A stretch of 64,000 nucleotides of DNA from an uncultured Verrucomicrobiae bacterium (GTDB lineage Bacteria; Verrucomicrobiota; Verrucomicrobiia; Chthoniobacterales; JAATET01): NCBI GenBank assembly GCA_963719495.1, contig CAVRCI010000002.1, positions 96,001 through 160,000 of the forward strand. The letters are read 5' to 3'. Of this stretch, positions 1 through 34,649 are shown one piece after another. The number at the start of each line of letters is the position of its first letter. The first letter of the stretch is position 1. The translations under genes and the position numbers were made by a program. Below the pieces are notes generated by a model. That model did no database searches. It worked only from the letters and a program-made list of their open reading frames with translations, and was not told the DNA's origin.

Positions 1-83
1 AAGTTATAGGAATGAATTATGGGCTTCGATGGTTTGAACAGGAGCCTATCCGGCAGGTTCTCATCGAATAGGAATCCGGTCAT
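1..83 (-). CDS. DUF5615 PIN-like toxin, N-terminal part (runs off window)
   Basis: MTGFLFDENLP motif; ATGA overlap with the DUF433 gene. Confidence 0.75.
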   Translation of the reverse strand, partial: MTGFLFDENLPDRLLFKPSKPIIHSYN

Positions 84-301
84 GCCACCTGTTGAAGCGA
101 GTAGTGATGGCTCAGAAGATTCGACGAAAAATTGAAACAGGCCAAAATGTCATCTTTGGTAAGTCGGGGGTATTCTTCGAGAATCTCCTCTATCGAGTCC
201 CCGGCAGCGAGAAACTCAAGAATCGTTCGCGCTGTAACGCGCGAGCCTTCGATGACTGGTTGTCCGTTGCAGATGTCCGGGTCAATGACGATTTTGCTCA
301 T
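80..301 (-). CDS. DUF433 antitoxin
   Basis: DPDICNGQPVIEGSRV...ILEEYPRLT motif. Confidence 0.9.
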   Translation of the reverse strand: MSKIVIDPDICNGQPVIEGSRVTARTILEFLAAGDSIEEILEEYPRLTKDDILACFNFSSNLLSHHYSLQQVA

Positions 302-345
302 AGATGATAGCGTAGTCGATTCGGTAGTCTTGGCAACGCTTCATG

Positions 346-474
346 GGCTAACGTCAAGCTCAGCCACCCTGAGCGGAGCAACGAACGTCTAGGCGAGGTG
401 TTTGCCGGAAGGGGATCGTTCGGCCAAGGCTTGCCGCTGGTCGGCTAGGGGTTGGCTGCAGCGCCTTGTTCGTC
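346..474 (-). repeat. attC: attC variant specific to non-coding family A
   Basis: Same arms, distinct central region (GCAACGAACGTCTAGG...CCAAGGCTTGCC) found only next to family A cassettes. Confidence 0.9.
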
Positions 475-817
475 GGAAACGGTGACTGCACAATGGAGGA
501 CCAGAGCGTCCGACAGGCTGACGATGATCAAATCCAGCAAGCGGCTTCGTTAGAGCATTCAGTCGAAGAGGCTTCTGTGGTCCAGATTGACTACGCATTA
601 TAAATATATTGCTCGTGACACGAAAAGGGCGGAACGGATTCTGGATGGATCTACTCATGCCGCGTGAGCGCCCCAAGCTTGCATGGCAGGCGAATAATCG
701 TTGGCGTCGAATCGGGAGTGATCAATAGAAAACCAGAATCGTGCTCAATCGTATGCCGAATGGAATCGAACAACTCTGAACCGTTCCTTGATCTCAACCC
801 CAATAAATCAGGCGAAC
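468..817. other. Non-coding cassette family A, copy 1
   Basis: About 350 bp, 11 copies in the window, no convincing sense ORF. Confidence 0.8.
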
Positions 818-937
818 GTCAAGCTCAGCCACCCTGAGCGGGTAATCAAGCCAACCCTGAGGTGAGCTGCCAATAGCGGGACCGAGCAACCCCAGCCAGC
901 GAAGCGGCTAGGGGTTGGCTGCAGCGCCTTGTTAGGT
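811..937 (-). repeat. attC: Representative dominant attC site
   Basis: Minus strand ACCTAAC-AAGGC-GCTGCAGCCAACCCCTAGCC...GCTCAGGGTGGCTGAGC-TTGAC-GTTCGCC, i.e. R''/L''...L'/R' boxes with extrahelical bases. Confidence 0.95.
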
Positions 938-1660
938 CTCATTCGTATTCTTCTGTAGGGCGATTGAATAGCGAGTCACCCGCTCACATAGGAATGGAAT
1001 ATTACGAACGTCCTCGGCGTCCATGAGAAAGTTGCCTTCAGTATTGATTGCCGCTTGAGACATATCGAACTCGAAGGGTCGGCTGGTGATAAAAAATGTG
1101 AATAAAATCCCCGAAATGACAGTCCGGTATGTGTGATGGCCGTCCATCTTGAGCTTATCTGGCGGCAAGATCCAATCCGGTTGATACTCTCCCTCCAATA
1201 GCAGCCCCGTCAAAACAGTAGGATATAGATCTGGTGGCCCGGGGTCTCCAGCGAGAAGCATTAAACGTAGTCGTTCCTGATGTGGGCCAAGCTTTACAGC
1301 GGAGAAGATCTCAAGTGTCGAGATACCCATCCGCCAGATTAGCGACATGAGATATAGCTTGAAGGGAAGATAGTCGATGCCTCCAAGTCGCATATAGTGA
1401 TCGGTCCTCTCTACGAGATAAACCGTGTCGTCAAAAATTACCTTTTTTGCATATCCCTCCCATCTTGAAAATACGCCTTCACAAGTATCACAGAGCAGTT
1501 CTTCTCGAAAGCCTTTCTGTTCAAACTTCTGTTTCTGATTGGGATCTGTCGAGATGACGTAGAATCTGTGCTTATTATCGTATAGTGGCTTATACTGAAA
1601 CTCAGGAATGATGTGAGAATTTCGCAGTGCTGATTCTTGATGGCAAAGTTGGCATCTCAT
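932..1660 (-). CDS. Zn-binding HNH-like endonuclease protein
   Basis: CxxC...SHIIP...LLCxxCE motifs; stop codon inside the attC core. Confidence 0.65.
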   Translation of the reverse strand: MRCQLCHQESALRNSHIIPEFQYKPLYDNKHRFYVISTDPNQKQKFEQKGFREELLCDTCEGVFSRWEGYAKKVIFDDTVYLVERTDHYMRLGGIDYLPFKLYLMSLIWRMGISTLEIFSAVKLGPHQERLRLMLLAGDPGPPDLYPTVLTGLLLEGEYQPDWILPPDKLKMDGHHTYRTVISGILFTFFITSRPFEFDMSQAAINTEGNFLMDAEDVRNIPFLCERVTRYSIALQKNTNET

Positions 1661-1812
1661 AAGACCTAACGTCAAGCTCAGCCACCCTGAGCGGGTGACC
1701 GAGCCAACCCCCAGGTGAGCTGCCGGTAGCGGGTTCGAGCAACCCCAGCCAGCGAAGCGGCTAGGGGTTGGCTGCAGCGCCTTGTTCGGCTGTATTCGAG
1801 ATCGACGTTACT

Positions 1813-2112
1813 TTAACGACTATTTGCTTCTGTGATGCTGTCGGCGATGTCGGCCAACATGAGTGCAGCTTCCTTCACGATCTTTCCGATCACCACGTAG
1901 ATCACGCCGATAAGAATCGAGATAAATAATGTCATGACCCCAGGTAAGAACTGTTGAGTCATCATTCCGATTCCACCGATCAATCCAAATAGGACCACAA
2001 TTCCACCCAGAACATATATGAGTATTGCGATGATACCGATGACAGAGCGAAAGGTTGGATAGGCTGAATCAGATCGGATTGAGGAAATGTAGTTTTGTTT
2101 TTGTGTGTTCAT
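1813..2112 (-). CDS. Small two-TM membrane protein
   Basis: Two hydrophobic segments; fills the cassette. Confidence 0.75.
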   Translation of the reverse strand: MNTQKQNYISSIRSDSAYPTFRSVIGIIAILIYVLGGIVVLFGLIGGIGMMTQQFLPGVMTLFISILIGVIYVVIGKIVKEAALMLADIADSITEANSR

Positions 2113-2368
2113 GTTTTGGTTTTGGGTTTTGGTAAATTTTGTTTTTTGGGCTAGCTTGCCTCAATCTCGGATCTACTCGAAAAATCGAATGACCGGGCTT
2201 TCTCTAATTGGACGGAAATAGATCGAATGGATCAATATGAGCCGAACGTCAAGCTCAGCCACCCTGAACGGGCGGACTGAGGCTACTGGTGATCAACTGC
2301 CGGTAAGAGGTCCGCGCAACCTCTAGGAGCGCAGCGGATAGGGGTTGGCTGCAGCGCCTTGTTAGGCC

Positions 2369-2632
2369 TCATCGATCTGCGTGGACAAGACTCAAAATCT
2401 TCACGTGTCGATCAGGGAAGTCGATCCAGTAATGTATTGCGAATCCCAGCCGAATTGAAATCTCTACCCGGCGGCTTGTGGAATCTGCTTCTGAAAAATC
2501 TGAATAGCTGTCAGGAGATTGTCGGATCGCTTCAAAATGCCGGAACAATTGGTGCCGCTTCTTCTTCGGAAGTGAATCTAGAGTGTGAACGGTCTCTAAA
2601 TCGATTAAGAGTCTGTAGTCCAAAGGAATCAA
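2369..2632 (-). CDS. RelE/ParE-like toxin
   Basis: 87 aa with IHYWID...VKILSLVH C-terminus; coupled to the upstream small gene. Confidence 0.65.
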   Translation of the reverse strand: MIPLDYRLLIDLETVHTLDSLPKKKRHQLFRHFEAIRQSPDSYSDFSEADSTSRRVEISIRLGFAIHYWIDFPDRHVKILSLVHADR

Positions 2633-2823
2633 TCCGCGTAGCGAGCTCTCAAATCGTCGAGTTCAACCCAATTCGAGGTGTCCTTGTCATTGATCTTCGC
2701 AGACAAAACTGCCTTGAACTCCGTGTCGTCCGCGGTCTGTCGTGCGACCATAAATGCGACCAACTCACGTTGCTCTGATTCAGGAAGATGCAGAACAGCA
2801 TCTTTTATTTGATGAAGCGACAT
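2629..2823 (-). CDS. Putative antitoxin (addiction-module type)
   Basis: MSLHQIKDAVLHLPESEQREL; overlaps the toxin start; has its own promoter. Confidence 0.6.
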   Translation of the reverse strand: MSLHQIKDAVLHLPESEQRELVAFMVARQTADDTEFKAVLSAKINDKDTSNWVELDDLRARYAD

Positions 2824-2990
2824 AGTTTGATTCTACGATTACTGCTTGGAAGCGCAATCTCATTTTTTGGCCTAACGTCAAGCTCAGCCACCCTGAGCGG
2901 GCAATCAAGCCAACCCTGAGGTGAGCTGCCAGTAGCGGGTCCGAGCAACCCCAGCCAGCGAAGCGGCTAGGGGTTGGCTGCAGCGCCTTG

Positions 2991-3620
2991 TTAGGCCGTG
3001 TTGCTGTATTTTGAAGCGAGCCGGTTGATGTGATATTCGTCTGTCTCGATTGATCTTTGCAACCTCTTCATTTCTATACGACCGACGATGTATGAAATCT
3101 TTCGCTCGTCGAAGATTGTTGGTCGAAAAGCGCTGATATACGAAATGAGGTCTTTCAATTGAATGACGCTTTCTCCCATCTCAGTTTTTAAAGAGGCAGC
3201 GCCGGAGAATACGACCAGATTCACAAAAGATTCACTGGGGAGCTTGAATAACTGACGAAGAGCCTGGATGTGGCCGTCGTTCTGCGATAAGGGATTCTGA
3301 AATCTTGATTTTTTCCGGTAGATTGTCTGTGTCCACTGCTTCTGATTTGGTCCGCCAAATATCCATCCTTGGTAGTGCTTGGTCTCGATTACAAAGATTG
3401 CTGTATCCGTAATTAGGACATGATCGATTTGTGTCGATCCTTCGCTGGTCGGAAGTGTTATGTTATTAATCAGGTGATACAGGGGCAGATTTGCATCGTG
3501 AATGCAGTTTATCACACGCGATTCACCGACATCCTTGCGAATTTCACGCGTGCGGCGGATTGATATGCCTGCTGCAAATCCAAGGAAAAGTGCTACGCAG
3601 ATCCAGAGTAGTTCTGTCAT
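2991..3620 (-). CDS. NERD nuclease-related domain protein with N-terminal TM
   Basis: GESRV...QIDHVLI...IFVIETKHYQG...NPLSQN motifs. Confidence 0.9.
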   Translation of the reverse strand: MTELLWICVALFLGFAAGISIRRTREIRKDVGESRVINCIHDANLPLYHLINNITLPTSEGSTQIDHVLITDTAIFVIETKHYQGWIFGGPNQKQWTQTIYRKKSRFQNPLSQNDGHIQALRQLFKLPSESFVNLVVFSGAASLKTEMGESVIQLKDLISYISAFRPTIFDERKISYIVGRIEMKRLQRSIETDEYHINRLASKYSNTA

Positions 3621-3912
3621 ATGGGCCTAACGTCAAGCTCAGCCACCCTGAGCGGGCAATCAAGCCAACCCTGATGTGAGCTGCCGATAGAGGGATCGAG
3701 CAACCCCAGCCAGCGAAGCGGCTAGGGGTTGGCTGCAGCGCCTTGTTCGGCTGTATTCGAAGTTAGTAAAGACTTGCTCAATAAGTAGCGCTTCGCGGGT
3801 GCATCGCAAATAAAATGTTCCTGCTCTTCTGTAATGTGGAATCCCATCCCAACGAAAAACGGCATAGCTGTCGTGCTCGATTCGGTGTAGAGAAGTGAAA
3901 TACGCTTGTCAT

Positions 3913-5399
3913 TGTCGGGGCCTGTTCAAAAGTGAACGGAGACTGTTCAAAAGCGGAATGAGAGACTGTTCAAAAGTGGATTGGGGGTTTTGGGGCGTTG
4001 TATTGGGAGACGCGGGAAGCGCCTCGGAGGAGGCCGGAGCGTAGCGGAGGCTGACGGAGAGGCGCTTCCCGCGTGCGCGCCTGCTCCCCGGCCCCAGTGC
4101 CCCAAGGATACCAGCCGTTGGGGTGAAGCGTTTGTGGAACGCGCTGGCTTGCGCGCTCGCCTGGTCGATTATCCCGGATTGAAAAGAAGCAGATTACCCA
4201 CCGTCTCCCGCCAGATTTTGTCCGTCGCACACTTGCAGGTTTCAATGCGGGACTTCTCGATGCCAGCAATGCCGCAAGCCAGTTAGGCATCGGCAAAACC
4301 AGGCTCTATGAACTCCGCACGGCCTACCTCGCAAATCGTAATTCCTACGCCCCGGCTGCCAGCGGGGGCGCTCGTCGCGCCGACTGGCCGCCCGAAGTTG
4401 AACGCTTTCTCCAAGAGTTTCTGCCGCTTCAGAACCCACCCAATTACCAGTTAGTCGCCGACGAACTTGAGCGACTCTGCGGATTCGTTCGGGCGCGCTC
4501 GGTCGTCGAGACCCACGTCAAAGCGCGCTACGCCCATCTGGTGCCCTCGCCGACCCGCAAGCCTCGCGTTTATCGGCGCTTCCGTCGCGCTCGCATCGGC
4601 GAACTTTGGCAGCACGACAGTTCGATCCACCAATGGTGGCCCGCCGCCGCTAAACAGACTTTACTGCTCACCGTCGACGACCATTCGGGCCTGAATCTAG
4701 CAGGTCGCTTCGTGGAATCCGATACCACTTGGAACCATTTCGGACATTTCCGCGAATCCTTCGAGACCTGGGGCCTGCCGCAGATCGTTTACACTGATGG
4801 CCTCAGCCTCTTCGGGCCAAGTTCCAGCGGCGATCACTGCGATCCTAAGAGTGAATTCCAACGCGCCCTCCGCGGACTCGGCGTCGCTCACTTAGTGGCA
4901 CCGACCCCACAAGCTAAGGGTAAGATCGAGCGCCGTTTCGGGACTTTCCAGAGACGGCTCGTCACACTACTCGCCCATGCCAGCGCCAAAACTTGGCCCC
5001 AGGCCGACGAAATTCTTCAGATGGAGATTGCCAGGCAGAACCGTACCGTCAATCGCTCCACCGGCAAGGTCCCGCTCCATCTGTGGGAAGCGCAGTCGCT
5101 TGGCGACAGCGGGCGCATGCGCCCCATCCCGCCTTCCGCGCTCCTAGACTTACACCTCTCAATCCGCTGCTCCCGCCGGGTGAACAATGACCACACCATC
5201 GACTTCGATGGCTCCAACTACGAGATCTCCAACACCCAGCGCAAGAGCGTCACCATCGTCCACCATCCCGGAAGCCGTTTCTGGGTCGTCGAACACCCTC
5301 CCAAAACCGTCTGGCCCCCCATTCTAGGCCACTTCAGCCTCTAAAATCGCTGTTCGCTTTTGAACAGGCGAGAATTCCGCTTTTGAACAGTCGCCGATA
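3913..5399 (+). mobile_element. IS1202-family (IS481-related DDE) insertion sequence
   Basis: Ends TGTCGG.../...CCGATA. Subterminal CTGTTCAAAAG x3 on the left and CTTTTGAACAG x2 on the right. 16-bp direct repeat GAAATACGCTTGTCAT at 3897-3912 and 5400-5415. Confidence 0.88.
4178..5344 (+). CDS. DDE (rve-type) transposase; start uncertain
   Basis: GELWQHDSS, VYTDG and QAKGKIERRFGTFQ motifs. Frame is open from 4127 with an HTH (AASQLGIGKTRLYELR) upstream of the first standard start at 4541. Confidence 0.85.
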   Translation: MEKKQITHRLPPDFVRRTLAGFNAGLLDASNAASQLGIGKTRLYELRTAYLANRNSYAPAASGGARRADWPPEVERFLQEFLPLQNPPNYQLVADELERLCGFVRARSVVETHVKARYAHLVPSPTRKPRVYRRFRRARIGELWQHDSSIHQWWPAAAKQTLLLTVDDHSGLNLAGRFVESDTTWNHFGHFRESFETWGLPQIVYTDGLSLFGPSSSGDHCDPKSEFQRALRGLGVAHLVAPTPQAKGKIERRFGTFQRRLVTLLAHASAKTWPQADEILQMEIARQNRTVNRSTGKVPLHLWEAQSLGDSGRMRPIPPSALLDLHLSIRCSRRVNNDHTIDFDGSNYEISNTQRKSVTIVHHPGSRFWVVEHPPKTVWPPILGHFSL

Positions 5400-5846
5400 G
5401 AAATACGCTTGTCATTTGCTTCATGTTCGATTGCGATGTAAAGCAGCCGCCCAATTCCTTTCCTTGTCCAGCGGTGGTGAACGTAGAAGTAATCAATGTG
5501 GCCATCACGGTCGAGCTCCGCAAAACCGAGTATTGATTGCTGGTGGCGGACAACAAAAGGATTCTTCAGACGAATCCGATCGGCCCACTCATTTATATCT
5601 TTGTTTGATGGCGCCCAACGCTCGCATTGCGCTGGCGTGTAATCACGTCCGTTGACGATGTGAGTCGTGTCATAATATATTTTCCAAAGGATTGCCTCTT
5701 CTCCGGAAACATATCGATTAACGAGGTAAGTTGAATTGCTCATAGTGAAGCCGAACGTCAAGCTCAGCCACCCTGAGCGGGCAATCAAGCCAACCCCGAG
5801 GTGAGCTGCCAGTAGCGGGACCGAGCAACCCCAGCCAGCGAAGCGG

Positions 5847-6431
5847 CTAGGGGTTGGCTGCAGCGCCTTGTTCGGCATCAGTCTGACCAGCAGTCATTGA
5901 ATTTTCGGAGCAAACAATTCTCGTATGAATTGAAGTTATGTATATATTAGCTATCTCAAAAGTTTCCTCAATCCCTTCCCAAAAAGCCAAGTCTAGATTC
6001 TCAATTCTTGGACTCGACTGGAAATAACTCACGCAGATCTCGTTGTGCTTTTGCAATATCGTTCCATGTGCAAAAGCGTTTCTATAGCGAATTACCCTTG
6101 AGAATGTCTTCTCGAATTTATTCCGATCCTGCGGATCCAAAATTCGAAGTTGCTCACAAATCCAAAAGATTGTCTTTCGCTTACTCTCAAACGAAAAGAA
6201 ACTTGAGTGCACAATCTGATCCATGAATACATTGAGCAAATTTGGGTCATTTCTTATAAAGAAGGCGCCAATTATCTCAGCACAATTTTGTTCGATTCCG
6301 AGAGCACTCCGAATTACGAGACTGCCGTTTCGAAAGGCAATTTCGATTTCATCGAGTTGCATCTGCTGTGGAACATTTGCTTCCATCTGCATGATTGCCT
6401 TTGCTTGGAAGGGGAGCGTGATGATCTTCAT
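5847..6431 (-). CDS. Hypothetical protein (HEPN-like RxxxxH motif)
   Basis: 194-aa ORF filling the cassette, contains RNAFAH; stops inside attC. Confidence 0.65.
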   Translation of the reverse strand: MKIITLPFQAKAIMQMEANVPQQMQLDEIEIAFRNGSLVIRSALGIEQNCAEIIGAFFIRNDPNLLNVFMDQIVHSSFFSFESKRKTIFWICEQLRILDPQDRNKFEKTFSRVIRYRNAFAHGTILQKHNEICVSYFQSSPRIENLDLAFWEGIEETFEIANIYITSIHTRIVCSENSMTAGQTDAEQGAAANP

Positions 6432-6573
6432 GGGAACTATAGCCGAACGTCAAGCTCAGCCACCCTGAGCGGGCAATCGAGCCAAACCCCAGGTGAGCTG
6501 CCAATAGCGGGACCGAGCAACCCCAGCCAGCGAAGCGGCTAGGGGTTGGCTGCAGCGCCTTGTTCGGCTGCAT

Positions 6574-6987
6574 TCATGGAAGTTCTACAGTTCGATTGAC
6601 CAAATCCCAATTTGCGACAAGCTTCAGGCGAGCGGTGGTTTGATTCCATTGCATTTCATCTACCATAGATGCCAACTCAATTGGTGCCGTTCCGCAAGAA
6701 AGGCCTTCGCGAGTGAATACAGTCACATATCCAGACTTATCACCCGATGAACCAGGCATCATTGGAACGCTGAATTGCCATGCGGAACAGGTTACGATTG
6801 CGAGAAACTCTCGATTGGGGCTTTGGTTGCGACGGCATTCGATCTGACGGAAGATGGTAAAGTAGCCTAAGAAACCTAATACAAGAACTATGGCGGTTCC
6901 GAGAATGATCAACTTCTGTCTGCGCTTCATGATCCAGCCCGGTCGAAAGGTGGTTTTCTCGTTCAGCAGGTTACTCGGGGTATTCAT
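6574..6987 (-). CDS. Membrane-anchored hypothetical protein (copy 1)
   Basis: N-terminal TM; same gene at 20181-20594. Confidence 0.7.
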   Translation of the reverse strand: MNTPSNLLNEKTTFRPGWIMKRRQKLIILGTAIVLVLGFLGYFTIFRQIECRRNQSPNREFLAIVTCSAWQFSVPMMPGSSGDKSGYVTVFTREGLSCGTAPIELASMVDEMQWNQTTARLKLVANWDLVNRTVELP

Positions 6988-7120
6988 CCACCGGAGGTCG
7001 AGCCGAACGTCAAGCTCAGCCACCCTGAGCGGGCAATCGAGCCAACCCTGAGGTGAACTGCCAGTAGAGGGTCCGCGCAATCCCAGCCGCGAAGCGGCTA
7101 GGGGTTGGCTGCAGCGCCTT

Positions 7121-7500
7121 GTTCGGCTATAACCGCACAAGCTACGAGTGATGTTGCAATCACGCTGCCAACCCCTCCCTGAATTTGACCGTATGCATTT
7201 TATTATTGACCGTTCGAATAAGAGAAATGCCGTAAACTAGATGAAACTGAGCAGCGCGTGGAACGAGAGATGGCTTGAACAGGGCTTGTAGGGTGAGACC
7301 TGAAAATCACCAAAATATTTTCGCTTCGCTTCGCGAAGAAATGCGGATGAAGGGGAGGTGATGAAATGGCGTGGATTTTCTCCAACGTGCCGCAATTACA
7401 GAATCGCTGGGCATCACCATATATTCCGCTCCGTCAAGCAATGTCGGGAGCGATTAGCGAGTTGCTCAGGAAATATCATCCGCCGGAGGCTGAGCCGAAC
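7121..7500. other. Non-coding cassette family F, copy 1
   Basis: Homologous to 24467-24848, no conserved ORF. Confidence 0.65.
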
Positions 7501-7616
7501 GTCAAGCTCAGCCACCCTGAGCGGAGCAACGAACGTCTAGGCAAGGTGTTTGCCGGAAGGGGGATCGGTTGGCCAAGGCTTGCCTCAGACCGGCTAGGGG
7601 TTGGCTGCAGCGCCTT

Positions 7617-7966
7617 GTTCGTCGGAAACGGTGACTGAACAATGGAGGACCCGAGCGTCCGACAGGCTGACGATGACCAAATCCAGCAAGCGGCATCGTT
7701 AGAGCATTCAGTCGGAGGGGCTCCTGTGGTCCAGATTGACTACGCATTATAAATATATTGCTCGTGACACGAGAAGGGCGGAACGGATTCTGGATGGATC
7801 TACTCATGCCGCGTGAGCGCCCCAAGCGTGCATGGCAGGCGAATAACCGTTGGCGTCGAATCGGGAGTGATCAATGGAAAACCAGAATCGTGCTCAATCG
7901 TATGCGGAAGGGAATCGCGCAGCTCTGAACTTTTTCTTGATCTCAACTCCAATAAATCAGGCGAAC
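7617..7966. other. Non-coding cassette family A, copy 2
   Basis: Homologous to 468-817. Confidence 0.8.
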
Positions 7967-8079
7967 GTCAAGCTCAGCCACCCTGAACGGGCGAGCGGAG
8001 GCAACTGGTGATCAGCTGCAGGTAGAGGGTCCGCGCAACCCCAAGAGCGAAGCGGATAGGGGTTGGCTGCAGCGCCTTG

Positions 8080-8394
8080 TTAGGGCTGTATTATGATATA
8101 GCTTCCAGGGTCCGCCGTATCCACCGCTGTGACAATCTTCGGAATGAAGGGCTTGAGAAATGGCCAGCGAATCGTGAAGAGTTCGACAATAGCGATCTTG
8201 CGGTTGGACAAGTTTTGCTGATACCGGAGGTTCTTGTCTCCGAGGACAAAAACATCGAAGCGGGCGTCAATCAGCTTCATCAACTCACCATTTTTAACGC
8301 CGGCCCAACCCTGATGTTGCACCGAAGTAGTGGAATGGTGATCGAGATACTTCAGTAGCGGATGAGGAACATTCTCATCAATGATGACCGTCAT
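8080..8394 (-). CDS. DUF5615 PIN-like toxin
   Basis: IIDENVP...GWAGVKNGEL...DKNL motifs. Confidence 0.85.
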   Translation of the reverse strand: MTVIIDENVPHPLLKYLDHHSTTSVQHQGWAGVKNGELMKLIDARFDVFVLGDKNLRYQQNLSNRKIAIVELFTIRWPFLKPFIPKIVTAVDTADPGSYIIIQP

Positions 8395-8597: not shown

Positions 8598-8776
8598 GGC
8601 TGGAAGTTACTCTAGCTGGGCCTATCTGCAATCTCATATTGCCTCATGCCCTAACGTCAAGCTCAGCCACCCTGAGCGGGTGACCGAGCCAACCCCCAGG
8701 TGAACTGCCAATGGCGGGAACGAGCAACCCCAGCCAGCGAAGCGGCTAGGGGTTGGCTGCAGCGCCTTGTTAGCCC

Positions 8777-8971
8777 TCAGGATTTAATGTATGGGACATT
8801 CACGTCGTCCAACATTGGAAAATGCTTGCGGTTCAGAGTGTCTAGAATGAGATCATGCGAATCGGAAGTTGCGGCAATAATGCAGTCTGCAAGCCCGGTC
8901 CCGTGAGAGGGGCGAAACTGCCGCGAGTAGAGGCCTGCTTCTTCAGCTATCTCGACCGTCACCGGAAGAAC
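8777..8971 (-). pseudogene. vapC: 3' remnant of vapC truncated by ISAs1-like element
   Basis: Matches the 3' half of intact vapC at 16661-17041. Confidence 0.9.
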
Positions 8972-10877
8972 CAGGGCATTTGGCTTGAAGCGCGAGGAAG
9001 CTGATAGGTAGGGGAAAAGAGAAATGGCTAGACAAAAGCGCGTCGAAAAGCTGAACTACGGTGGTGAAAAAGCAGGAGACCAGGAAAGGCGAGGGCATTG
9101 AAAGCAAGGCAACGCGATTGGAAGTGAAGGTAGCGCATTCGGCGGGGGACTGGCGCCGAGCGAAAGAGGCCCTTGGGCGAGAGCATGGGTTGGGAGCTGG
9201 GAGCGAGGCGGGAGACCGGCTCTGCCAGTTGGTGATGGAGGAAGGGAAGCTTGCCGGGGTAATGGTGTGGTGTGCGGCGGCGTGGCATTTGAAGGATCGG
9301 GACGAAGCGGTGGGATGGGATGCGGTGACGCGCTCGGAGCGGCTCAAGCTGGTGGTGCAGCTGCGACGCTTTCTGGTTTTGGAAGAGGCACGACGGCCGA
9401 ACCTGGCCAGCCAATGTCTTGGGGCCGGGATGCGGGAACTGGTGGAGCAATGGGAAAAGGTACACGGTTACCGACCACTTCTGGCCGAAAGCTTCAGCGA
9501 TCCAGAAAGCCATGCGGGAACGGTTTACAAAGCGACGAACTGGACGCAGGCGGGAACGACGAAGGGGTTTTCGCAAGACCACACCGACTACTACATCCCC
9601 AACGGGAGGCCCAAGAAGCTGTGGCTGAAAGAGCTCGCGCCCAAGGCCTGCGAGTTGATGAGCGCGCGCGAGTTGCCCGAAGCCAGCAAGGGGGCCTTGG
9701 TCGGACGCGGGGGAGCCCGCAGTCCGCTCAAGAACGCCGGACTCAAAAGCCTGCGCGACGCCTTGAGGGAGGTGCCCGATCCGCGTCACCCCAAAAGCCG
9801 CCGTCACCCCCTATCGGCGATGTTGACCCTGATCTCGCTGGGGTTGCTCATGGGGGCGCGCGACGTGCTCGATATCTGGAGGAAAGTGGCCTGCCTTTCC
9901 CAGAGCCAAAGAGAGGTGATCGGCCTGCGGGTGCGCGACAAGCAAAGTAAGCGGCTCAAGATGCCCGGCTACGATGCGCTCAACGACCTGCTGGCCGCCG
10001 TGGAACCCCACGCCTACGCCCATGCGCTGACGGCCTGGTTGCAAGCCAACGCGGGAGTGCTGCCCCGCAGCCTGGCCCTGGATGGCAAAAGCGTGGGCGA
10101 TGGACGCTGCGGCATGATCGTGACCCTTTGCCGTCATGAAGACGGGCGTCCGGTGGCCATGATCCCGGCCAGCGGAAAAAAAGAAGACTGCGAAGTCTCT
10201 GAAGCCCGCGCCCTGCTCTCCAATCCCGGGGTGGAACTGGTCAACGCGCTGGTCACGGCCGACCCGCTTCACAACAAAGAGGCCACCGCGCGAGTCATCC
10301 TGGAAAAGGGAGGCGACTATCTCATCGGCACAAAAGCAAATACCTCCAAACGATTGGAGGCAGCCACCCGCGCCCTGGAGGGCTCCCCTTTTTTGACCTG
10401 AGCTGCGAAGGCGATCACGGGCGCATCGACTCCCGCAAAGCCGCCGTCCAACCCATCTCCCCAGTCTCCGCCGGGCTGCCCGGTGCCCGCTCCGCCATCA
10501 CCGTGCAGCGCGACTGGCAGGAAAAGAAAGACCCCCACCAAACGCCCAAGAGCCATACCCGTATCTTCCTTTCCAGCCTGGAACCGGAAGAAAAATCCCG
10601 TTCCACCCGCGCCGTTCGCGAGCACTGGAGCATCGAGAACCGCAATCACCACAAACGCGACGCCTCCGCCTGGCAAGAAGATCGGCACCGACATCGCAGA
10701 CCAAAAGCTGCCCTCAACCTCGCCCTCACCCGCAACGTCCTGCTCGCCCTCATTCCCTTTGAGCACGGGCAACCCCTCGCTCACTTCTTCGAACTCTACC
10801 ACCGACACCCAGCAAAAGCTCTCAACCTTATCCTTCACGCTCGCCCCGCCCTATGACCCTTCCAGCCAAACGCCCTG
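8972..10877 (+). mobile_element. ISAs1-family insertion sequence
   Basis: Terminal IRs CAGGGCATTTGGCTTGAAG / CTTCCAGCCAAACGCCCTG; no target duplication visible. Confidence 0.88.
9061..10856 (+). CDS. ISAs1 transposase with N-terminal DUF4338/DruA-like domain, split by -1 frameshift near 10386-10395
   Basis: ORF1 9061-10401 (RFL...NLAS...YKATNW...G, then VPDPR...RHPL and LDGK). The -1 frame continues with DHGRIDSR and REHWSIEN to 10856. Confidence 0.85.
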
Positions 10878-11381
10878 CGCCGGAGGCCATGCCGTGGGGT
10901 GAACGATTGCCTTGGATGGTTCGAACGTCGAACAAAATAGCTGATCTGGCCATGAATGGCTCTGCAGGCATGGGCGGATGAGCGGTCGATTCGGAGCAAT
11001 TCCGTAAACGATCAATTTCATCGGGACGAGGTCTTCGTGGTCGCTGCTCTGAGCGGGCCACGATGACCGGTCGAGCTACAAAGGATGAATTGCATTCAAA
11101 TCGTGGCCACCGGAGAAGACGAGCAGATCTGTGGTGATGTGCGGGATGAGAGGGTGAATGGGCTGTCCTGGCACATCAGCCACAGATCGGCGGCCGAGCT
11201 ACCAGTGACTCTTCGCTGGCCAATGTATCAAATACATCATCCGCCGGAGGCTTCAGGAAAACCCAACGTCAAGCTCAGCCACCCTGAGCGGGTCACCGAG
11301 CCAACCCTGAGGTGAGCTGCCAGTAGCGGGACCGAGCAACCCCAGCCAGCGAAGCGGCTAGGGGTTGGCTGCAGCGCCTTG

Positions 11382-14685: not shown

Positions 14686-14968
14686 GTTCGGATCCGCATC
14701 TTCGTGGTCCCGTCGGATCTAAAATCTGCAGCCTTGCTCGCCGCCATGCCGAGTGATGATCGAGCCATACCAGCGAGTCAGACCGATGCGCTTCGATACG
14801 GAAATTGACGTCGAACGGACTGCGCAAAAATACCTTGGTTTGGGCTTCCGGCCAGGAAAATCAACCTTATTGTGGACACCTTCCGAATACACCCAATTTA
14901 TACAAAGCAAATTACAAACAAGCTTGTCTGCAGTTTGGGCGCCGTAGAACAGGGGCATAGGTCCGAAC
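14686..14968. other. Non-coding cassette family C, copy 1
   Basis: About 283 bp; homologous to 26510, 35127 and 48965. Confidence 0.7.
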
Positions 14969-15089
14969 GTCAAGCTCAGCCACCCTGAGCGGGTAGCCGA
15001 GCCGACCCTGAGGTGAGCTGCCGGTAGCGGGACCGAGCAACCCCAGCCAGCGAAGCGGCTAGGGGTTGGCTGCAGCGCCTTGTTCGGCT

Positions 15090-15380
15090 TCATCCATGCA
15101 GCGCTTCTAATACGATCTTTGGATGCCGTTCGGTGACCATGAGAAGCGCCCTGGCTGCTCCTTCCGGTTCTCGTCTCTTTTGCTCCCAATTCTGGATGGT
15201 TCGAGCACTTACCCCGATCATCAAGGCAAATTCGGTCTGACTCAATCCTAGGTTTCCGCGGATGTGCTGAACATCGGGATTTGAGACCTCGGTTACCCGA
15301 AAGTCTTGCTTGTCACCGCGCTGAAACGAACGAGCTTGCTTGATGCTACCAACCAGTAGTGAAAAATCTTCAGTATTCAT
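15090..15380 (-). CDS. higA: HigA antitoxin (XRE HTH), copy 1
   Basis: IRGNLGLSQTEFA...TIQNWEQ.RR.PEG motif. Confidence 0.9.
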   Translation of the reverse strand: MNTEDFSLLVGSIKQARSFQRGDKQDFRVTEVSNPDVQHIRGNLGLSQTEFALMIGVSARTIQNWEQKRREPEGAARALLMVTERHPKIVLEALHG

Positions 15381-15691
15381 GAGAGTTCTTGCTGAACAAG
15401 TGTTCGGAGCACCTTGAGTTGTTCGTTCGTGAAGTTGTCTTGTTTGTTCTTCGGGTATGCGAGAAGTAGAAATATCGATCCCTCGTGAAGGATGTAGTAG
15501 ATGACCCGGATGCCTCCACGCTTGCCGCGGCCTTGTGCGGACCAGCGTATTTTGCGAAGGCCACCGCTTCCGCGGATAAGATCGCCCGATTCAGGATTGA
15601 GCGAGAGAGTGACTTGAAAGTGGTGAAAATCGGCGTCATTGAGGAGCGTGGTGACCTGCTTGGTGAAAATAGGAGTTTCGATGAACTGCAC
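15377..15691 (-). CDS. higB: HigB-2/RelE-family toxin, copy 1
   Basis: FIETPIF...GGLRKIRW...GKRGGIRVIYY...LLAYPK motif. Confidence 0.9.
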   Translation of the reverse strand: MQFIETPIFTKQVTTLLNDADFHHFQVTLSLNPESGDLIRGSGGLRKIRWSAQGRGKRGGIRVIYYILHEGSIFLLLAYPKNKQDNFTNEQLKVLRTLVQQELS

Positions 15692-15698
15692 ATCATGA

Positions 15699-15726
15699 AA
15701 GATACGCCAATGGCGTATGCATGCAA
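15699..15726 (-). promoter_or_regulatory. higBA promoter with palindromic operator
   Basis: TTGCAT-16-TATCTT overlapping the palindrome ATACGCCA-T-TGGCGTAT. Confidence 0.65.
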
Positions 15727-15869
15727 CTGATTTCAGAGCCGAACGTCAAGCTCAGCCACCCTGAGCGGGTGACCGAGCCAACCCTGAGGTGAGCTGCCGG
15801 TAGCGGGAACGAGCAACTCCAGCCAGCGAAGCGGCTAGGGGTTGGCTGCAGCGCCTTGTTCGGTCTGTG

Positions 15870-17275: not shown

Positions 17276-17449
17276 ACAGCATAATGTATGGAGCGATCCT
17301 GCGTGTCAACAAATGAATTGGGGCTAACGTCAAGCTCAGCCACCCTGAGCGGGTAGCCGAGCCGACCCTGAGGTGAGCTGCCGGTAGCGGGACCGAGCAA
17401 CCCCAGCCAGCGAAGCGGCTAGGGGTTGGCTGCAGCGCCTTGTTCGGCT

Positions 17450-17740
17450 TCATCCATGCAGCGCTTCTAATACGATCTTTGGATGCCGTTCGGTGACCAT
17501 GAGAAGCGCCCTGGCTGCTCCTTCCGGTTCTCGTCTCTTTTGCTCCCAATTCTGGATGGTTCGAGCACTTACCCCGATCATCAAGGCAAATTCGGTCTGA
17601 CTCAATCCTAGGTTTCCGCGGATGTGCTGAACATCGGGATTTGAGACCTCGGTTACCCGAAAGTCTTGCTTGTCACCGCGCTGAAACGAACGAGCTTGCT
17701 TGATGCTACCAACCAGTAGTGAAAAATCTTCAGTATTCAT
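17450..17740 (-). CDS. higA: HigA antitoxin, copy 2
   Basis: Same protein as copy 1. Confidence 0.9.
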   Translation of the reverse strand: MNTEDFSLLVGSIKQARSFQRGDKQDFRVTEVSNPDVQHIRGNLGLSQTEFALMIGVSARTIQNWEQKRREPEGAARALLMVTERHPKIVLEALHG

Positions 17741-18051
17741 GAGAGTTCTTGCTGAACAAGTGTTCGGAGCACCTTGAGTTGCTCGTTCGTGAAGTTGTCT
17801 TGTTTGTTCTTCGGGTATGCGAGAAGTAGAAATATCGATCCCTCGTGAAGGATGTAGTAGATGACCCGGATGCCTCCACGCTTGCCGCGGCCTTGTGCGG
17901 ACCAGCGTATTTTGCGAAGGCCACCGCTTCCGCGGATAAGATCGCCCGATTCAGGATTGAGCGAGAGAGTGACTTGAAAGTGGTGAAAATCGGCGTCATT
18001 GAGGAGCGTGGTGACCTGCTTGGTGAAAATAGGAGTTTCGATGAACTGCAC
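17737..18051 (-). CDS. higB: HigB-2 toxin, copy 2
   Basis: Same protein as copy 1. Confidence 0.9.
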   Translation of the reverse strand: MQFIETPIFTKQVTTLLNDADFHHFQVTLSLNPESGDLIRGSGGLRKIRWSAQGRGKRGGIRVIYYILHEGSIFLLLAYPKNKQDNFTNEQLKVLRTLVQQELS

Positions 18052-18228
18052 ATCATGAAAGATACGCCAATGGCGTATGCATGCAACTGATTTCAGAGCC
18101 GAACGTCAAGCTCAGTCACCCCGAACGGATGTAGAGGAAAGTGGAGTGATCAACTGCAATCTGGTCGTTCGCCAACCCCTAAGAGCGAAGCGGCTAGGGG
18201 TTGACTGCAGCGCCTTGTTCGGCTGTAT

Positions 18229-18758: not shown

Positions 18759-18931
18759 ATTGTTGCAGCGGGCGCGTAGTGAAAGGGATCTGTGAGCGAA
18801 TTTATGAATAAAGCCGAACGTCAAGCTCAGCCACCCTGAGCGGGCAATCAAGCCAACCCTGAGGTGAGCTGCCAATAGCGGGTCCGCGCAACCCCCGCCG
18901 CGAAGCGGCTAGGGGTTGGCTGCAGCGCCTT

Positions 18932-19433
18932 GTTCGACGCGCATCTGTTCAAACTACGCATATCGTTACTTCCTCAAGCCAACCCCTCCGTATCTCTACC
19001 GAAGGCACTCCAATAATGAAGATCAAACCTTCGGAGAGGCTTCGCGATTGGAATCACTGAAATGCGATTGGAAGATTGTAGAGAGTAGAGCCTGAACTGG
19101 AGCGGGGGGCTTGGGACCAAGCTCACAAATATACGCCTGGAAGATTGTAGGGGGGTAGAGGCTGAATTGGAATAGAGAGGGGGCATTAAGCTCACAAATA
19201 GAAGCTCGGAACGATTGTTGGAACATCTGGTGACTTCCGAACGATTGGTCGAAAACCAAAATATTCTATCCGTTGAGAAACTGTGTTTGTTGCCTAGGCC
19301 CCGATTCTCCGTCCTACGCTGGTCGAAAAAATAGAACCCGACCGCTTGTAACAAGATGTGGTGTCCCCTGACGGCGTCCGAATATGTGAGAGCGAAATAT
19401 AGTCATCCGCCGGAGGCTCACAATGAGTCGAAC
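18932..19433. other. Non-coding cassette family D, copy 1
   Basis: About 500 bp with internal ~69-bp repeats; 4 copies. Confidence 0.7.
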
Positions 19434-20594: not shown

Positions 20595-20730
20595 CCACCG
20601 GAGGTCGAGCCGAACGCCAAGCTCAGCCACCCCGAACGGGGATCCGAACTCTGAAGAAGGATGTAAACTGCCACCCGGAAGTCAGTGCAACAGCGGCCGG
20701 TGATCGGCTAGGGGTTGGCTGCAGCGCCCT

Positions 20731-21012
20731 GGTCGTCGGGACGGGTCGCAGCGGAAGTGGCAATCGATAGCGTCCGGCAGGAACAAGATAAGGAAGTTGG
20801 GAAGGGGGTGATTTGCTGCAAGAGGTCCGAGTCACTGATGGCATGCACATATCTCCTCGTGATGGCGAAAGCGTGGCAAAAAAGACAGACAAACGAGATT
20901 ACCAGCAAAGCAGAGGGACGCGGAACGATGAGGAGATGATGAGAACGATACTCGGACGAATAAGATCTGAAGGTCGTAAACCGGGCGTTCAAAACAGATA
21001 TATTAGGCGACC
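20731..21012. other. Family E-type cassette (diverged) with GGT/ACC cores
   Basis: Ends GGTCGTC...GGCGACC. Confidence 0.7.
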
Positions 21013-21537: not shown

Positions 21538-21736
21538 TGTTGCTAATTGGAATTTAAGGTTTGAGTGAGCTTTGGCTTTGTTGAGGAGCGCGATCTCGAT
21601 CCACTTTTTCAGAGCCGAACGTCAAGCTCAGCCACCCTGAGCGGGGCAACGAACGTCTAGGCAAGGTGTTTGCTGGAAGGGGGATCGGTCGGCCAAGGCT
21701 TGCCTCAGGCCGGCTAGGGGTTGGCTGCAGCGCCTT

Positions 21737-22086
21737 GTTCGTCGGAAACGGTGACTGCACAATGGAGGACCTGAGCGTCCGACAGGCTGACGATGATCAA
21801 ATCCAGCAAGCGGCTTCGTTAGAGCATTCAGTCGAAGAGGCCTCTGTGGTCCAGATTGACGACGCATTATAACTATATTGCTCGTGACACGAGAAGGGCG
21901 GAACGGATTCTGGATTGGTCTACTCTTGCCGCGTGAGCGCCCCAAGCGTGCATGGCAGGCGAAAAACCCTTGGCGTCGAATCGGGAGTGATCAATGGAAA
22001 GCCAGAATCGTGCTCAATCGTATGCCGAAGGGAATCGAGCAACTCTAAACTTTCCCTTGATTTTAACCCCAATAAATCAGGCGAAC
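21737..22086. other. Non-coding cassette family A, copy 3
   Basis: Homologous to 468-817. Confidence 0.8.
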
Positions 22087-24344: not shown

Positions 24345-24466
24345 AATAGCTAACGTCAAGCTCAGCCACCCTGAGCGGGCAATCGAGCCAACCCTGAGGT
24401 GAACTGCCAGTAGAGGGTCCGCGCAATCCCAGCCGCGAAGCGGCTAGGGGTTGGCTGCAGCGCCTT

Positions 24467-24848
24467 GTTCGGCTCTAACCGCACAAGCTACGAAGGGTGT
24501 TGCAATCACGATGCCAACCCCTCCTTGAATTTGACCGTATGCATTTTACTATTGGCCGTTCGGATAAGGGGGAATGCCGTAAACTAGATGAAACTGAGCA
24601 GCGTGTGGAATGAGATAAGACTGGAACCGCAGTCAAAAAGTGGGACCTGAGAATGACCAAAAGATTTCGCTTTCGCTTCGCGAAAGAATGCGGATGAAGG
24701 ACTGATGGTGGAATTTCGGTGATCCGTCGCCGATGGTTCATCTTCGGAGCACTGCTGGGCAACATCATATTTTATAGCTCCGTCAAGCGGTGTTGGGAGC
24801 GATCAACAAGTTGCTCAGACGATATCATCCGCCGGAGGCAAGCCGAAC
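24467..24848. other. Non-coding cassette family F, copy 2
   Basis: Homologous to 7121-7500, same attC interior. Confidence 0.65.
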
Positions 24849-24963
24849 GTCAAGCTCAGCCACCCTGAGCGGGGCGACGAAAGTCTAGGAAAGGTGTTTG
24901 CGGGAAGGGGATCGGTCGGCCAAGGCTTGCCTCGGGCCGGCTAGGGGTTGGCTGCAGCGCCTT

Positions 24964-25314
24964 GTTCGTCGGAAGAGGTGACTGCACAATGGAGGACTTG
25001 ATCGTCCGACAGGCCGACGATGGGTCAAACCCAGCAAGCGGCTTCGTTAGAGCATTCAGTAGAAGAGGCTTCTGTGGTCCAGATTGACTACGCATTATAA
25101 ATATATTGCTCGTGACAAGAGCAGGCCGGAACGGATTCTGGATGGATCTACTCATGCCGCGTGAGCGCCCCAAGCGTGCATGGCAGGCGAATAATCGTTG
25201 GCGTCGAATCGGGAGTGATCAATAAAAAACCAGAATCGTGCTCAATCGTATGACGAAGGGAACCGAACAACTCTGAACCTTCCCTTGATCTCAACCCCAA
25301 TAAATCAGGCGAAC
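24964..25314. other. Non-coding cassette family A, copy 4
   Basis: Homologous to 468-817. Confidence 0.8.
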
Positions 25315-25836: not shown

Positions 25837-26046
25837 TGGTATTTAGAGGACTCCGGTGACCGATAGCAGAAGAAGTGGCAATATTCTCATATTGCTCAGG
25901 AATATTTCATCCACCGGAGGTCGAGCCGAACGTCAAGCTCAGCCACCCTGAGCGGGGCAACGAACGTCTAGGCAAGGTGTTTGCGGGAAGGGGATCGTTC
26001 GGCCAAGGCTTGCCTCAAGCCGGCTAGGGGTTGGCTGCAGCGCCTT

Positions 26047-26396
26047 GTTCGTCGGAAGAGGTGACTGCACGATGGAGGACCCGATCGTCCGACAGGCCGA
26101 CGATGGTCAAACCCAGCAAGCGGCTTCGTTAGAGCATTCAGTAGAAGAGGCTTCTGTGGTCCAGATTGACTACGCATTATAAATATATTGCTCGTGACAA
26201 GAGCAGGCCGGAACGGATTCTGGATGGATCTACTCATGCCGCGTGAGCGCCCCAAGCGTGCATGGCAGGCGAATAATTCTTGGGGTCGAATCGGGAGTGA
26301 TCAATGAAAAACCAGAATCGTGCTCAATCGTATGCCGAAGGGAATCGAGCAACTCTGAACTTTCCCTTGATCTTAACTCCAATAAATCAGGCGAAC
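26047..26396. other. Non-coding cassette family A, copy 5
   Basis: Homologous to 468-817. Confidence 0.8.
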
Positions 26397-28657: not shown

Positions 28658-28786
28658 TGTATGAAAGCCGAACGTCAAGCTCAGCCACCCTGAGCGGGCA
28701 ATCAAGCCAACCCTGAGGTGAGCTGCCAATAGCGGGAACGAGCAAGCCCAGCCAGCGAAGCGGCTAGGGGTTGGCTGCAGCGCCTT

Positions 28787-29287
28787 GTTCGACGCGCATC
28801 TGTTCAATCTACGCATATCGTGACTTCCTCAAGCCAACCCCTCCGTATCTCTACCGAAGGCACTCCAATAATGAAGATCAAACCTTCGAAGAGGCTTCGT
28901 GATTGGAATCACTGAAATGCGATTGGAAGATTGTAGAGAGTAAAGGCTGAACTGGAGCGGGAGGCTTGGGATCAAGCTCACAAATATACGTCTGGAAGTT
29001 TGTAGGGGGTAGAGGCTTAATTGGAATAGAGAGGGGGCATCAAGCTCACAAATAGAAGCTTAAAACGATTGTTGGGACATCTGGTGACTTCCGAACGATT
29101 GGTCGAAAATCAAAATATTCTATCCGTTGAGAAACTGTGTTTGTTGCCTAGGCCCCGATCCTCCGTCCTACGCTAGTCAAAAAAATAGAACCCGACCGCT
29201 TGAAACAAGATGTGGTGTTCCCTGACGGCGTCCGAATATGTAAGAGCGAAATATAGTCATCCGCCGGAGGCTCACAATGAGTCGAAC
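28787..29287. other. Non-coding cassette family D, copy 2
   Basis: Homologous to 18932-19433. Confidence 0.7.
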
Positions 29288-31851: not shown

Positions 31852-31981
31852 TATAATAATGACCTAACGCCAAGCTCAGCCACCCCGAACGGGGGACCAA
31901 ATTCTGAGCTTGATGTGATGGAATGGACGGAAGTCAGAACAAGAGCGCCGGGTGACGGCTAGGGGTTGGCTGTAGCGCTCT

Positions 31982-32375
31982 GGTCGTCGGGACGGCTCGT
32001 GGACATGATGGCCGGCCGTAGCATCCGACAGGGGCTAAACCGTGGAAGTCAGGAACAATTCAACCACATGGACCGAGGCTCGTGCCAGACTGGTCGTGGC
32101 AATCTTTCCTCGTGATGGTGAAAATGTAGTCGAAACAGATCAATCAGCGAAGTCGCGGAGGCGCAAGCTCGACCCGGCTCTGCGGGTGGAGCGGCGAGAC
32201 CCGGAACGGCGGAGTGAGATCGGAGAGGTGGAAGAGGGCGTCTGTGACGAGGGGAGTCGGCGGATGGAAGGGGAAAGGGGCATCCAGTCGAATTCTCTCG
32301 GCTCAGTCGCCCGATCGAATCAAAAGCAAGCGTTTCTAAACCGAACTCAATCATTATTTTTTGTATAAGGCGACC
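31982..32375. other. Family E cassette with GGT/ACC cores (Pro/Arg-rich 101-aa ORF 32049-32354 of doubtful status)
   Basis: Homologous to 50506-50899 and 59211-59603. Confidence 0.7.
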
Positions 32376-33492: not shown

Positions 33493-33736
33493 GTCAGTCT
33501 CGAAAAGACAGAGTTGGTAATCGAACAACGAACTCGACTGGAGACAAATTGGACGATCCGAAGAGGTCCTGGGTCATGCAGCAAGTTGCTCAGAAATATC
33601 ATCCACCCGAGGTCGAGCCGAACGTCAAGCTCAGCCACCCTGAGCGGGCAATCAAGCCAACCCTGAGGTGAGCTGCCAATAGCGGGAACGAGCAACCCCA
33701 GCCAGCGAAGCGGCTAGGGGTTGGCTGCAGCGCCTT

Positions 33737-34237
33737 GTTCGACGCGCATCTGTTCAAACTACGCATATCGTGACTTCCTCAAGCCAACCCCTCCGTATCT
33801 CTACCGAAGGCACTCCAATAATGAAGATCAAACCTTCGAAGAGGCTTCGTGATTGGAATCACTGAAATGCGATTGGAAGATTGTAGAGAGTAAAGGCTGA
33901 AGTGGAGCGGGAGGCTTGGGATCAAGCTCACAAATATACGTCTGGAAGTTTGTAGGGGGTAGAGGCTTAATTGGAATAGAGAGCGGGCATCAAGCTCACA
34001 AATAGAAGCTTAAAACGATTGTTGGGACATCTGGTGACTTCCGAACGATTGGTCGAAAATCAAAATATTCTATCCGTTGAGAAACTGTGTTTGTTGCCTA
34101 GGCCCCGATCCTCCGTCCTACGCTAGTCAAAAAAATAGAACCCGACCGCTTGAAACAAGATGTGGTGTTCCCTGACGGCGTCCGAATATGTAAGAGCGAA
34201 ATATAGTCATCCGCCGGAGGCTCACAATGAGTCGAAC
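33737..34237. other. Non-coding cassette family D, copy 3
   Basis: Near-identical to 28787-29287. Confidence 0.7.
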
Positions 34238-34358
34238 GTCAAGCTCAGCCACCCTGAGCGGGTAGCCGAGCCGACCCTGAGGTGAGCTGCCGGTAGCGGG
34301 ACCGAGCAACCCCAGCCAGCGAAGCGGCTAGGGGTTGGCTGCAGCGCCTTGTTCGGCT

Positions 34359-34649
34359 TCATCCATGCAGCGCTTCTAATACGATCTTTGGATGCCGTTC
34401 GGTGACCATGAGAAGCGCCCTGGCTGCTCCTTCCGGTTCTCGTCTCTTTTGCTCCCAATTCTGGATGGTTCGAGCACTTACCCCGATCATCAAGGCAAAT
34501 TCGGTCTGACTCAATCCTAGGTTTCCGCGGATGTGCTGAACATCGGGATTTGAGACCTCGGTTACCCGAAAGTCTTGCTTGTCACCGCGCTGAAACGAAC
34601 GAGCTTGCTTGATGCTACCAACCAGTAGTGAAAAATCTTCAGTATTCAT
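34359..34649 (-). CDS. higA: HigA antitoxin, copy 3
   Basis: Same protein as copy 1. Confidence 0.9.
   Translation of the reverse strand: MNTEDFSLLVGSIKQARSFQRGDKQDFRVTEVSNPDVQHIRGNLGLSQTEFALMIGVSARTIQNWEQKRREPEGAARALLMVTERHPKIVLEALHG

Follow-up and report, generated by a model that had tools for sequence, protein, structure and literature searches.

Gene cassettes that lack a recognizable gene have been described from several integrons. In two strains of V. vulnificus, families of non-coding cassettes number 45 and 34 copies, and the authors set a selfish existence against promoter or RNA functions and add gene conversion (Boucher et al., 2006; PMC1382264). For gene-less cassettes of Vibrionaceae superintegrons promoter activity has been measured, with transcription in some of them starting at scattered AT-rich positions (Blanco et al., 2024; PMC11014356), and ORF-less cassettes of oral Treponema were proposed to drive their neighbours (PMC6557892). 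In Xanthomonas, where repeated empty cassettes have been noted, a non-coding element, sRNA-Xcc1, is carried and spread as an integron cassette (10.1101/2025.06.18.660453). Repeated empty cassettes also occur in Vibrio DAT722 (25 of 116). Among the papers listed for integrons together with Verrucomicrobia, none deals with such cassettes as judged by title and the opening lines of the abstract, which is not proof of their absence from print.

The stretch analysed here (the window, 64,000 nucleotides, G000:C2:96001-160000) lies entirely within the minus-strand array of a chromosomal integron. The genome has 214 attC sites, of which the window contains 95. The integron integrase at C2:176417 scores 425.6 bits against TIGR02249, above the family cut-off, its frame is open with no internal stops, and it lies ~0.9 kb from the first cassette, linking the array to integrase and attI; the cassette at attI is itself a copy of the family under study, family A (Table 1). 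Family A is a 465-bp cassette of a 344-bp body plus attC, bounded by attC sites whose R'/R'' and L boxes can pair on the bottom strand, as in integron gene cassettes generally. It has 31 copies in the genome, 30 on contig C2 and one on C7; the cassette parser drops the attI-first copy, so that family-level counts give 30. In the numbering of cassette families, family A is F3. No integron integrase was found on contig C7. A second integrase-like gene (G000:C1:371896-372837), just below the TIGR02249 cut-off, stands on a contig with no attC of the array type. Two oversized GC-rich (57-60%) cassette intervals in the window, 3748-5753 and 8772-11264, are probably IS insertions.

Like the Vibrio paralogous cassettes (PMC1382264), family A is most probably non-coding, is conserved over its full length, occurs as many paralogues in one array and, in the genomes searched, has homologues only in close relatives; its 36-aa antisense product has no protein match outside the family, and no frame shows a synonymous-site pattern. 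The Vibrio definition also demands the absence of any ORF above 150 bp; family A carries a sense frame of 89-119 codons that overlaps attC, has lost its ATG in several copies and gives a non-significant dN/dS of 0.73-0.80. The non-coding share, 6-49% of Vibrio arrays, is 22-44% here when 19 families are counted. The host group differs, the likeness is a descriptive one, and family A differs further in its nearly private attC interior and in belonging to a genus with a different dominant family in each genome. Empty multi-copy cassettes being already known from Vibrio, family A is a new example and not a new kind. We give an even chance to the reading of family A as a gene-less cassette, resident in a sedentary chromosomal integron, that owes its copy number mainly to cassette traffic and not to a need for 31 copies.

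Table 1. Coordinates of family A and associated features (window positions unless a genome or contig is given).
Feature	Position	Strand	Remarks
attC, family A interior	346-474	-	R'' (GACGAAC) at 468-474; predicted pfold 0.80, falling to 0.41 when flanks are included
Family A, reference copy	352-816	- (array polarity)	G/TT crossover boundaries from R' boxes 346-352 and 811-817
Family A copy	7500-7965	-	
Family A copy	21620-22085	-	
Family A copy	24848-25313	-	1-nt insertion at ~25022 shifts the antisense ORF
Family A copy	25931-26395	-	
Family A copy	37004-37468	-	
Family A copy	39423-39887	-	
Family A copy, in tandem pair	43824-44288	-	shares 99.6% identity with the copy at 346
Family A copy, tandem partner	44289-44753	-	94% identical to its neighbour
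Family A copy, in tandem pair	57479-57944	-	
Family A copy, tandem partner	57945-58409	-	92% identical to its neighbour
Acidic antisense ORF	493-603	+	36 codons; without codon-level selection, probably incidental
Conserved non-coding core	504-565		~60 nt; 0.25 alleles per nt against 0.52 in 605-810
TATAAT	597-602	-	in AT-rich patch (about 597-610); -35 3/6; without TG extension; 24/31 genome copies
Related gene-less cassette F23	20615-21011	-	276-bp body; end motifs and short body motifs in common with A
Related gene-less cassette F20	31868-32374	-	388-bp body
Related gene-less cassette F20	50392-50898	-	
Related gene-less cassette F20	59097-59602	-	387-bp body
F9 cassettes	18813-19430, 28667-29284, 33617-34234, 46479-47100		
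F21 cassettes	7002-7497, 24348-24845		
CCTCCGG[CT]GGATG motif	43813, 24838, 7489		examples; arrays of G000-G005 (L067-L118)
Inverted array block	G000:C2:49701-55389		10 sites
C7 cluster	C7:38061-40952		5 attC sites, includes one family A copy
Dominant gene-less family	G000		family A, 30/210 cassettes
Dominant gene-less families	G001		16 and 11 of 138 cassettes
Dominant gene-less families	G002		33, 29 and 16 of 188 cassettes
Dominant gene-less family	G003		10/62 cassettes
Dominant gene-less family	G004		86/399 cassettes
Dominant gene-less family	G005		56/173 cassettes

The initial annotation had counted 11 copies in the window and two tandem pairs at 43940/44405 and 57596/58061. Both observations stand: the copies are 92-100% identical to 346-817, and the pairs were found at 43818/44283 and 57473/57939. 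The regular spacing of ~6 kb that it proposed is not seen, since gaps in the window range from 465 to 14,120 bp and placement is random. For the 200 cassettes of the main array the coefficient of variation of the gaps is 0.91 compared with 0.88 for random placement (P=0.64), with 5 A-A adjacencies against 4.1 expected. Permutation nulls accommodated every pattern examined, be it periodicity, clustering of A copies with one another or pairing of family A with three further gene-less families. Because the members of each of the five tandem pairs in the genome are only 92-94% alike, the pairs are taken as separate insertions. Identity among the genome copies averages 93% (range 88-100%) and is independent of distance (rho about 0), and four-gamete incompatibility climbs from 0.25 to 0.62 as distance grows, in keeping with recombination among the copies. 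The alleles include 2 indels compared with 155 substitution alleles. Directly downstream of family A, 11 of 28 cassettes are gene-less compared with 33.5% overall, so that genes are not enriched there.

Two gene-less families of the same genome, F20 (5 copies) and F23 (4 copies), resemble family A at the cassette ends and in short motifs lying ~40 and 125-145 nt from attC, which is read as common ancestry; a profile of family A and its homologue in the congeneric genome G001 retrieves neither. The attC interior had been described as used by no other cassette. This holds within the window, but genome-wide 2 of the 180 non-A cassettes, both of a related gene-less family, have it too. Gene-less families with non-canonical R boxes, in which the crossover is GGT instead of GTT or R'' ends in ATC, reach up to 29 copies (window 20609, 31862, 50386 and 59091; F4, F5 and F12 in relatives). 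Two short matches in family A were rejected. For a LexA box-like motif at the attC junction (9/10 match, 12 A copies), the genome offers no perfectly matching site, and the regions preceding lexA, recA and intI lack even one with up to 2 mismatches. A 13-bp match between the conserved core and the ends of a genomic IS, presumably IS1182-like, was taken as chance (E=2.8, in only part of the copies). An IS with 13-bp ends sits at the CTAG of an attC arm (G000:C2:27599-29199), with more copies elsewhere in the genome.

The folding of attC sites, expressed as pfold, is reported to control the excision rate (PMC5371416), and the published definition of pfold was applied here with our own pair constraints and DNA energies. 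All 10 constrained pairs are possible in 29 of the 30 parsed A copies. The 30 A sites have a median predicted pfold of 0.81 (at least 0.69 in 28) compared with 0.023 for the 148 other sites of the genome, although the A sites are not independent and the rank-test P is thereby inflated; among non-A sites 124 of 180 lie below 0.1 and 21 reach 0.7. Folded without flanks, family A ranks 9 of 137 families. The common attC, of which one example was folded, is predicted to misfold via repeats within its arms; for two A examples the correct fold was obtained. With flanks of 40 and 60 nt, the A median drops to 0.12 compared with 0.011 for the others, the distribution becomes bimodal and the rank falls to 38 of 137. 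Across families, pfold and copy number are uncorrelated in 6 of 6 genomes (rho -0.13 to 0.06), and in none of the other five genomes does the leading family have an edge in pfold, that of G001 lying even lower. Independently of family A, the bodies of F1, F9, F11, F15 and F21 carry a GCCAACCCC-like stretch ~40-50 nt from attC that is complementary to an attC arm; flanks cut the predicted pfold 4- to 40-fold for F1 and F21 and for F9 in one of two genomes, but not for F11 or F15.

According to the traffic reading, family A, a complete cassette whose R'/R'' boxes match and whose array has an open integrase frame, has a nearly private attC that is free of the competing folds of the common attC and, by computation, would adopt the recombinogenic hairpin far more often, so that the integrase would frequently excise and re-capture it. 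Copies would enter singly at attI and be pushed down the array at random, and the allele patterns suggest that they swap sequence and also pass between species of the genus. The cassette would be tolerated, perhaps mildly useful, because its AT-rich patch may start weak sense transcription; the ~60-nt core would be retained as nucleotide sequence for a cis role, and the antisense ORF would be incidental. The uninterrupted integrase frame, the A copy first at attI, the random placement, the distance-independent identity, the divergent tandem partners and the signs of allele mixing argue for this reading, as do a near-identical copy in G004, the high pfold of isolated A sites, the lack of a coding signal or of gene enrichment downstream, and relatives whose large arrays hold no or one A copy and are each dominated by another gene-less family. 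Against it count the pfold gap that shrinks with flanks, the missing correlation between pfold and copy number and the leading families of the other genomes, which have no pfold advantage; the scarcity of indels and the conserved core moreover point to some constraint that pure mobility does not explain.

Coding potential was assessed from distinct alleles against the consensus of 32 sequences (the 31 copies and one from the congeneric genome G004), with the observed mutation spectrum as null. None of the six frames gave a significant signal, the sense frame opening at the ATG at 659 or at 598 among them, and family A most likely encodes no protein. As a control, the whole-cassette allele test finds a selected frame (P<=0.001) in 14 of the 24 lower-copy families F14-F37, and P<0.05 in none of the 14 largest families F0-F13, family A among them. 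On the opposite strand, a 36-codon acidic ORF had been reported as intact in 10 of 11 copies and interpreted as a peptide, possibly a DNA mimic. The count is correct for the window, but genome-wide 4 of 31 copies have a disrupted frame, through a frameshift in one, an altered start plus internal TAG in another and loss of the stop in two. Its alleles comprise 9 synonymous and 30 non-synonymous changes and 1 stop, with 10.2 synonymous changes expected under neutrality; the resulting dN/dS of about 1.18 is close to 1, one of the outcomes named beforehand as refuting the peptide. The GAGGTG noted just upstream of the ORF in several copies is found in 5 of 11 window copies, not including the copy at 346, and in 14 of 31 genome-wide. 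An ATG-initiated ORF of at least 36 codons appears on one strand of the shuffled body in 36% of trials.

The acidity of the ORF is the one feature above chance: a net charge of -8 or lower is reached in 0.2% of 4000 dinucleotide shuffles of both strands, and -7 in 0.4% (shuffle P 0.002-0.004). In 567 family representatives, 1 of 1296 antisense ORFs of 20-60 aa reaches -7, the representative of family A itself being a 61-aa read-through allele and hence outside this bin. Translation of the ORF to give an acidic peptide of 36 aa that may mimic nucleic acid, with selection acting on charge and not on sequence, is a minority reading kept because of this unusual acidity, and since selection on composition alone could escape dN/dS; we consider it very improbable. 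The frame is intact in 27 of 31 copies, TAA has become TGA in two copies, several changes retain or add D/E, acid-losing alleles number 4 against 7.0 expected (P=0.15), and the G001 frame stays acidic past its stop. However, that homologue has a TAG at codon 8 and no matching in-frame start, no plus-strand promoter was found, and GAGGTG is confined to fewer than half of the copies. A protein search with the 36-aa product, the other frames having been covered by dN/dS, returned no relatives outside the family: in 1.84 billion representatives its single match, a protein of 61 aa with 78% identity, has the length of the family's own read-through allele, and of 400 further genomes in the order only 2 gave matches, each from the same genus. 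An Atlas search yielded no usable match, which counts neither for nor against the peptide. Of the properties expected of a small acidic DNA mimic, the strong negative charge is present, whereas codon-level purifying selection and a frame kept whole across homologues are lacking. The antisense ORF is probably incidental.

A minus-strand TATAAT had been noted in all copies and taken for an internal promoter that re-fires transcription every ~6 kb, an idea to which the random spacing gives no footing. The hexamer is present in 11 of 11 window copies but in 24 of 31 genome-wide, being lost in seven; three of the seven other alleles (2 G000 copies and G004) have TATACT, with A2 and T6 kept. As to the internal promoter itself, a published class exists: most of 29 tested Vibrio gene-less cassettes were active in sense, with TSSs away from the cassette 5' end (PMC11014356). 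Family A resembles these cassettes in lacking an annotated gene, in its body length, within their 335-515 bp, and in an internal AT-rich -10-like site in array polarity; they are defined by measured promoter activity, which in family A is hypothetical, and its sense frame of 95-105 codons runs through attC with no selection seen. The ORF-less Treponema cassettes belong to a different integron type, and the promoter role of family A is putative (PMC6557892). By analogy with the Vibrio cassettes, family A perhaps carries a weak sense promoter. A stronger version, in which the host selects the cassette as a promoter, TATAAT at 602-597 firing sense transcription near 590 through core and attC and copies being kept to switch on distant parts of the array, appears rather unlikely. 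At a genomic GC content of 63%, perfect -10 hexamers are scarce, with 67 found beyond the array, and that of family A is oriented in array polarity; a shuffled body yields a TATAAT in 6% of trials. By contrast with this perfect -10, the best -35 matches at 3 of 6 positions with no extended -10, the G001 homologue has no TATAAT, positions 566-604 are as variable as the rest (0.55 alleles per nt), no hybrid attC-cassette promoter occurs in family A, and among the 567 family representatives TATAAT is found in sense in 47 and in antisense in 84. A promoter scan gave no sigma-70-like site in 340-940, and EM learning of a host promoter model drifted to a compositional motif. A clear promoter, TTGCAT-16-TATCTT, is instead found in a three-copy two-gene cassette at 14962. 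This 657-bp cassette, identical at 14962-15741, 17322-18101 and 34231-35010, has a palindrome over the promoter and looks like a toxin-antitoxin pair. The motif CCTCCGG[CT]GGATG, counted in array polarity, has 29 sites in the G000 arrays against two in the remainder of the genome. It lies close to the 5' end in many gene-less cassettes and in some coding ones, an AT-rich hexamer often following it, and is absent from family A. A Gibbs search for motifs common to 19 gene-less families recovered only the CCTCCGGCGGATGA motif, which family A does not carry.

Between the TATAAT and attC lies the conserved core, with an allele density half that of the remainder (scan-corrected P=0.035); 47 of 58 positions in 507-564 are identical in the distant G001 homologue, compared with 13/29, 15/24 and 15/37 in the flanks. 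Such a core could be the working part of a ~120-nt sense sRNA running from about 590 to attC, like sRNA-Xcc1 in kind, a possibility that we regard as improbable. Its position 30-90 nt downstream of the TATAAT and its status as the best-kept part, among copies and in G001, would suit an sRNA, and in the sense fold of the 3' 150 nt 14 of 33 alleles are pairing-compatible against 26% expected (P=0.03). This P value is, however, one of 8 tests and fails correction; the remaining 7 are null, and variability does not differ between paired and unpaired sites. For the core region in 3 A copies and in G001, folding gives z-scores from -1.2 to +1.4, the RNAalifold covariation term is -0.18 with a double change in 3 of 105 pairs, no Rfam match came near the gathering score in window 1-8200 (two copies inside), and no complementary target exceeded chance in the genome (best E 0.18). 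A covariation-supported fold or Rfam match, as would mark a structured cassette-borne sRNA, was thus not obtained, at low power given a mean identity of 93%. Unlike sRNA-Xcc1, family A has no Rfam match, no symE partner and no supported fold (10.1101/2025.06.18.660453). Two structural candidates were discarded. The long 5' hairpin has 13 of 40 pairing-compatible alleles, no more than chance, and z-scores of -0.5, -1.1 and -3.4 in three copies. A hammerhead-like CUGANGA in the core is broken in about half of the copies and has no Rfam support. Elsewhere in the genus, the gene-less families F4, F5, F6 and F12 (G001-G005) carry a long inverted repeat in their 3' half whose arms differ in step between the family consensuses, and this repeat is a better structured-RNA candidate than family A.

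Large arrays are present in all five congeneric genomes (G001-G005) and have their attC arms in common with G000, the number of motif matches ranging from 65 to 413. Outside its own genome, family A is present as one copy in G004, to which one G000 copy is at least 99% identical, and as the distant homologue in G001. It was not found in G002, G003 or G005 (the last 79% complete, with two matches of 23-33 nt that are not such cassettes), nor outside the genus in 60 genomes searched by DNA, 400 by protein and 148 by profile, nor among plasmids and phages. An attC-anchored pattern gave no metagenome match, whereas a core pattern matched in 2 genomes and 2 metagenomes; one match (L063, 92% identical) is a real copy and three match only the 22-23 nt pattern. 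Among 4 DNA sequencing runs only X1, which may be the source sample, covers the body, X2 and X4 covering attC sites only. In the array regions examined, the dominant gene-less family is a different one in each of the six genomes, each family occurring at 0-5 copies elsewhere. This turnover could mean that gene-less cassettes are competing integron parasites or symbionts, unrelated families of 270-375 bp persisting at 0-5 copies until a different one per lineage runs away to 12-32% of the array; family A would have done so after pairing with a better-folding attC, its core making an sRNA or acidic antisense peptide that favours its own retention. We think this unlikely; were it true, the selfish-versus-useful question, open since 2006, would become directly testable by attC/core swaps.

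If the peptide or the sRNA were real, family A would represent a new cassette cargo, an outcome for which the sequence evidence is weak. If instead the traffic reading holds, family A would be an ordinary but clean example of a gene-less cassette, filling 15% of a superintegron. Its added value is comparative and lies in six congeneric arrays, each with a different dominant gene-less family, which together with the separable attC and core of family A would offer a ready system for testing selfish against selected persistence.
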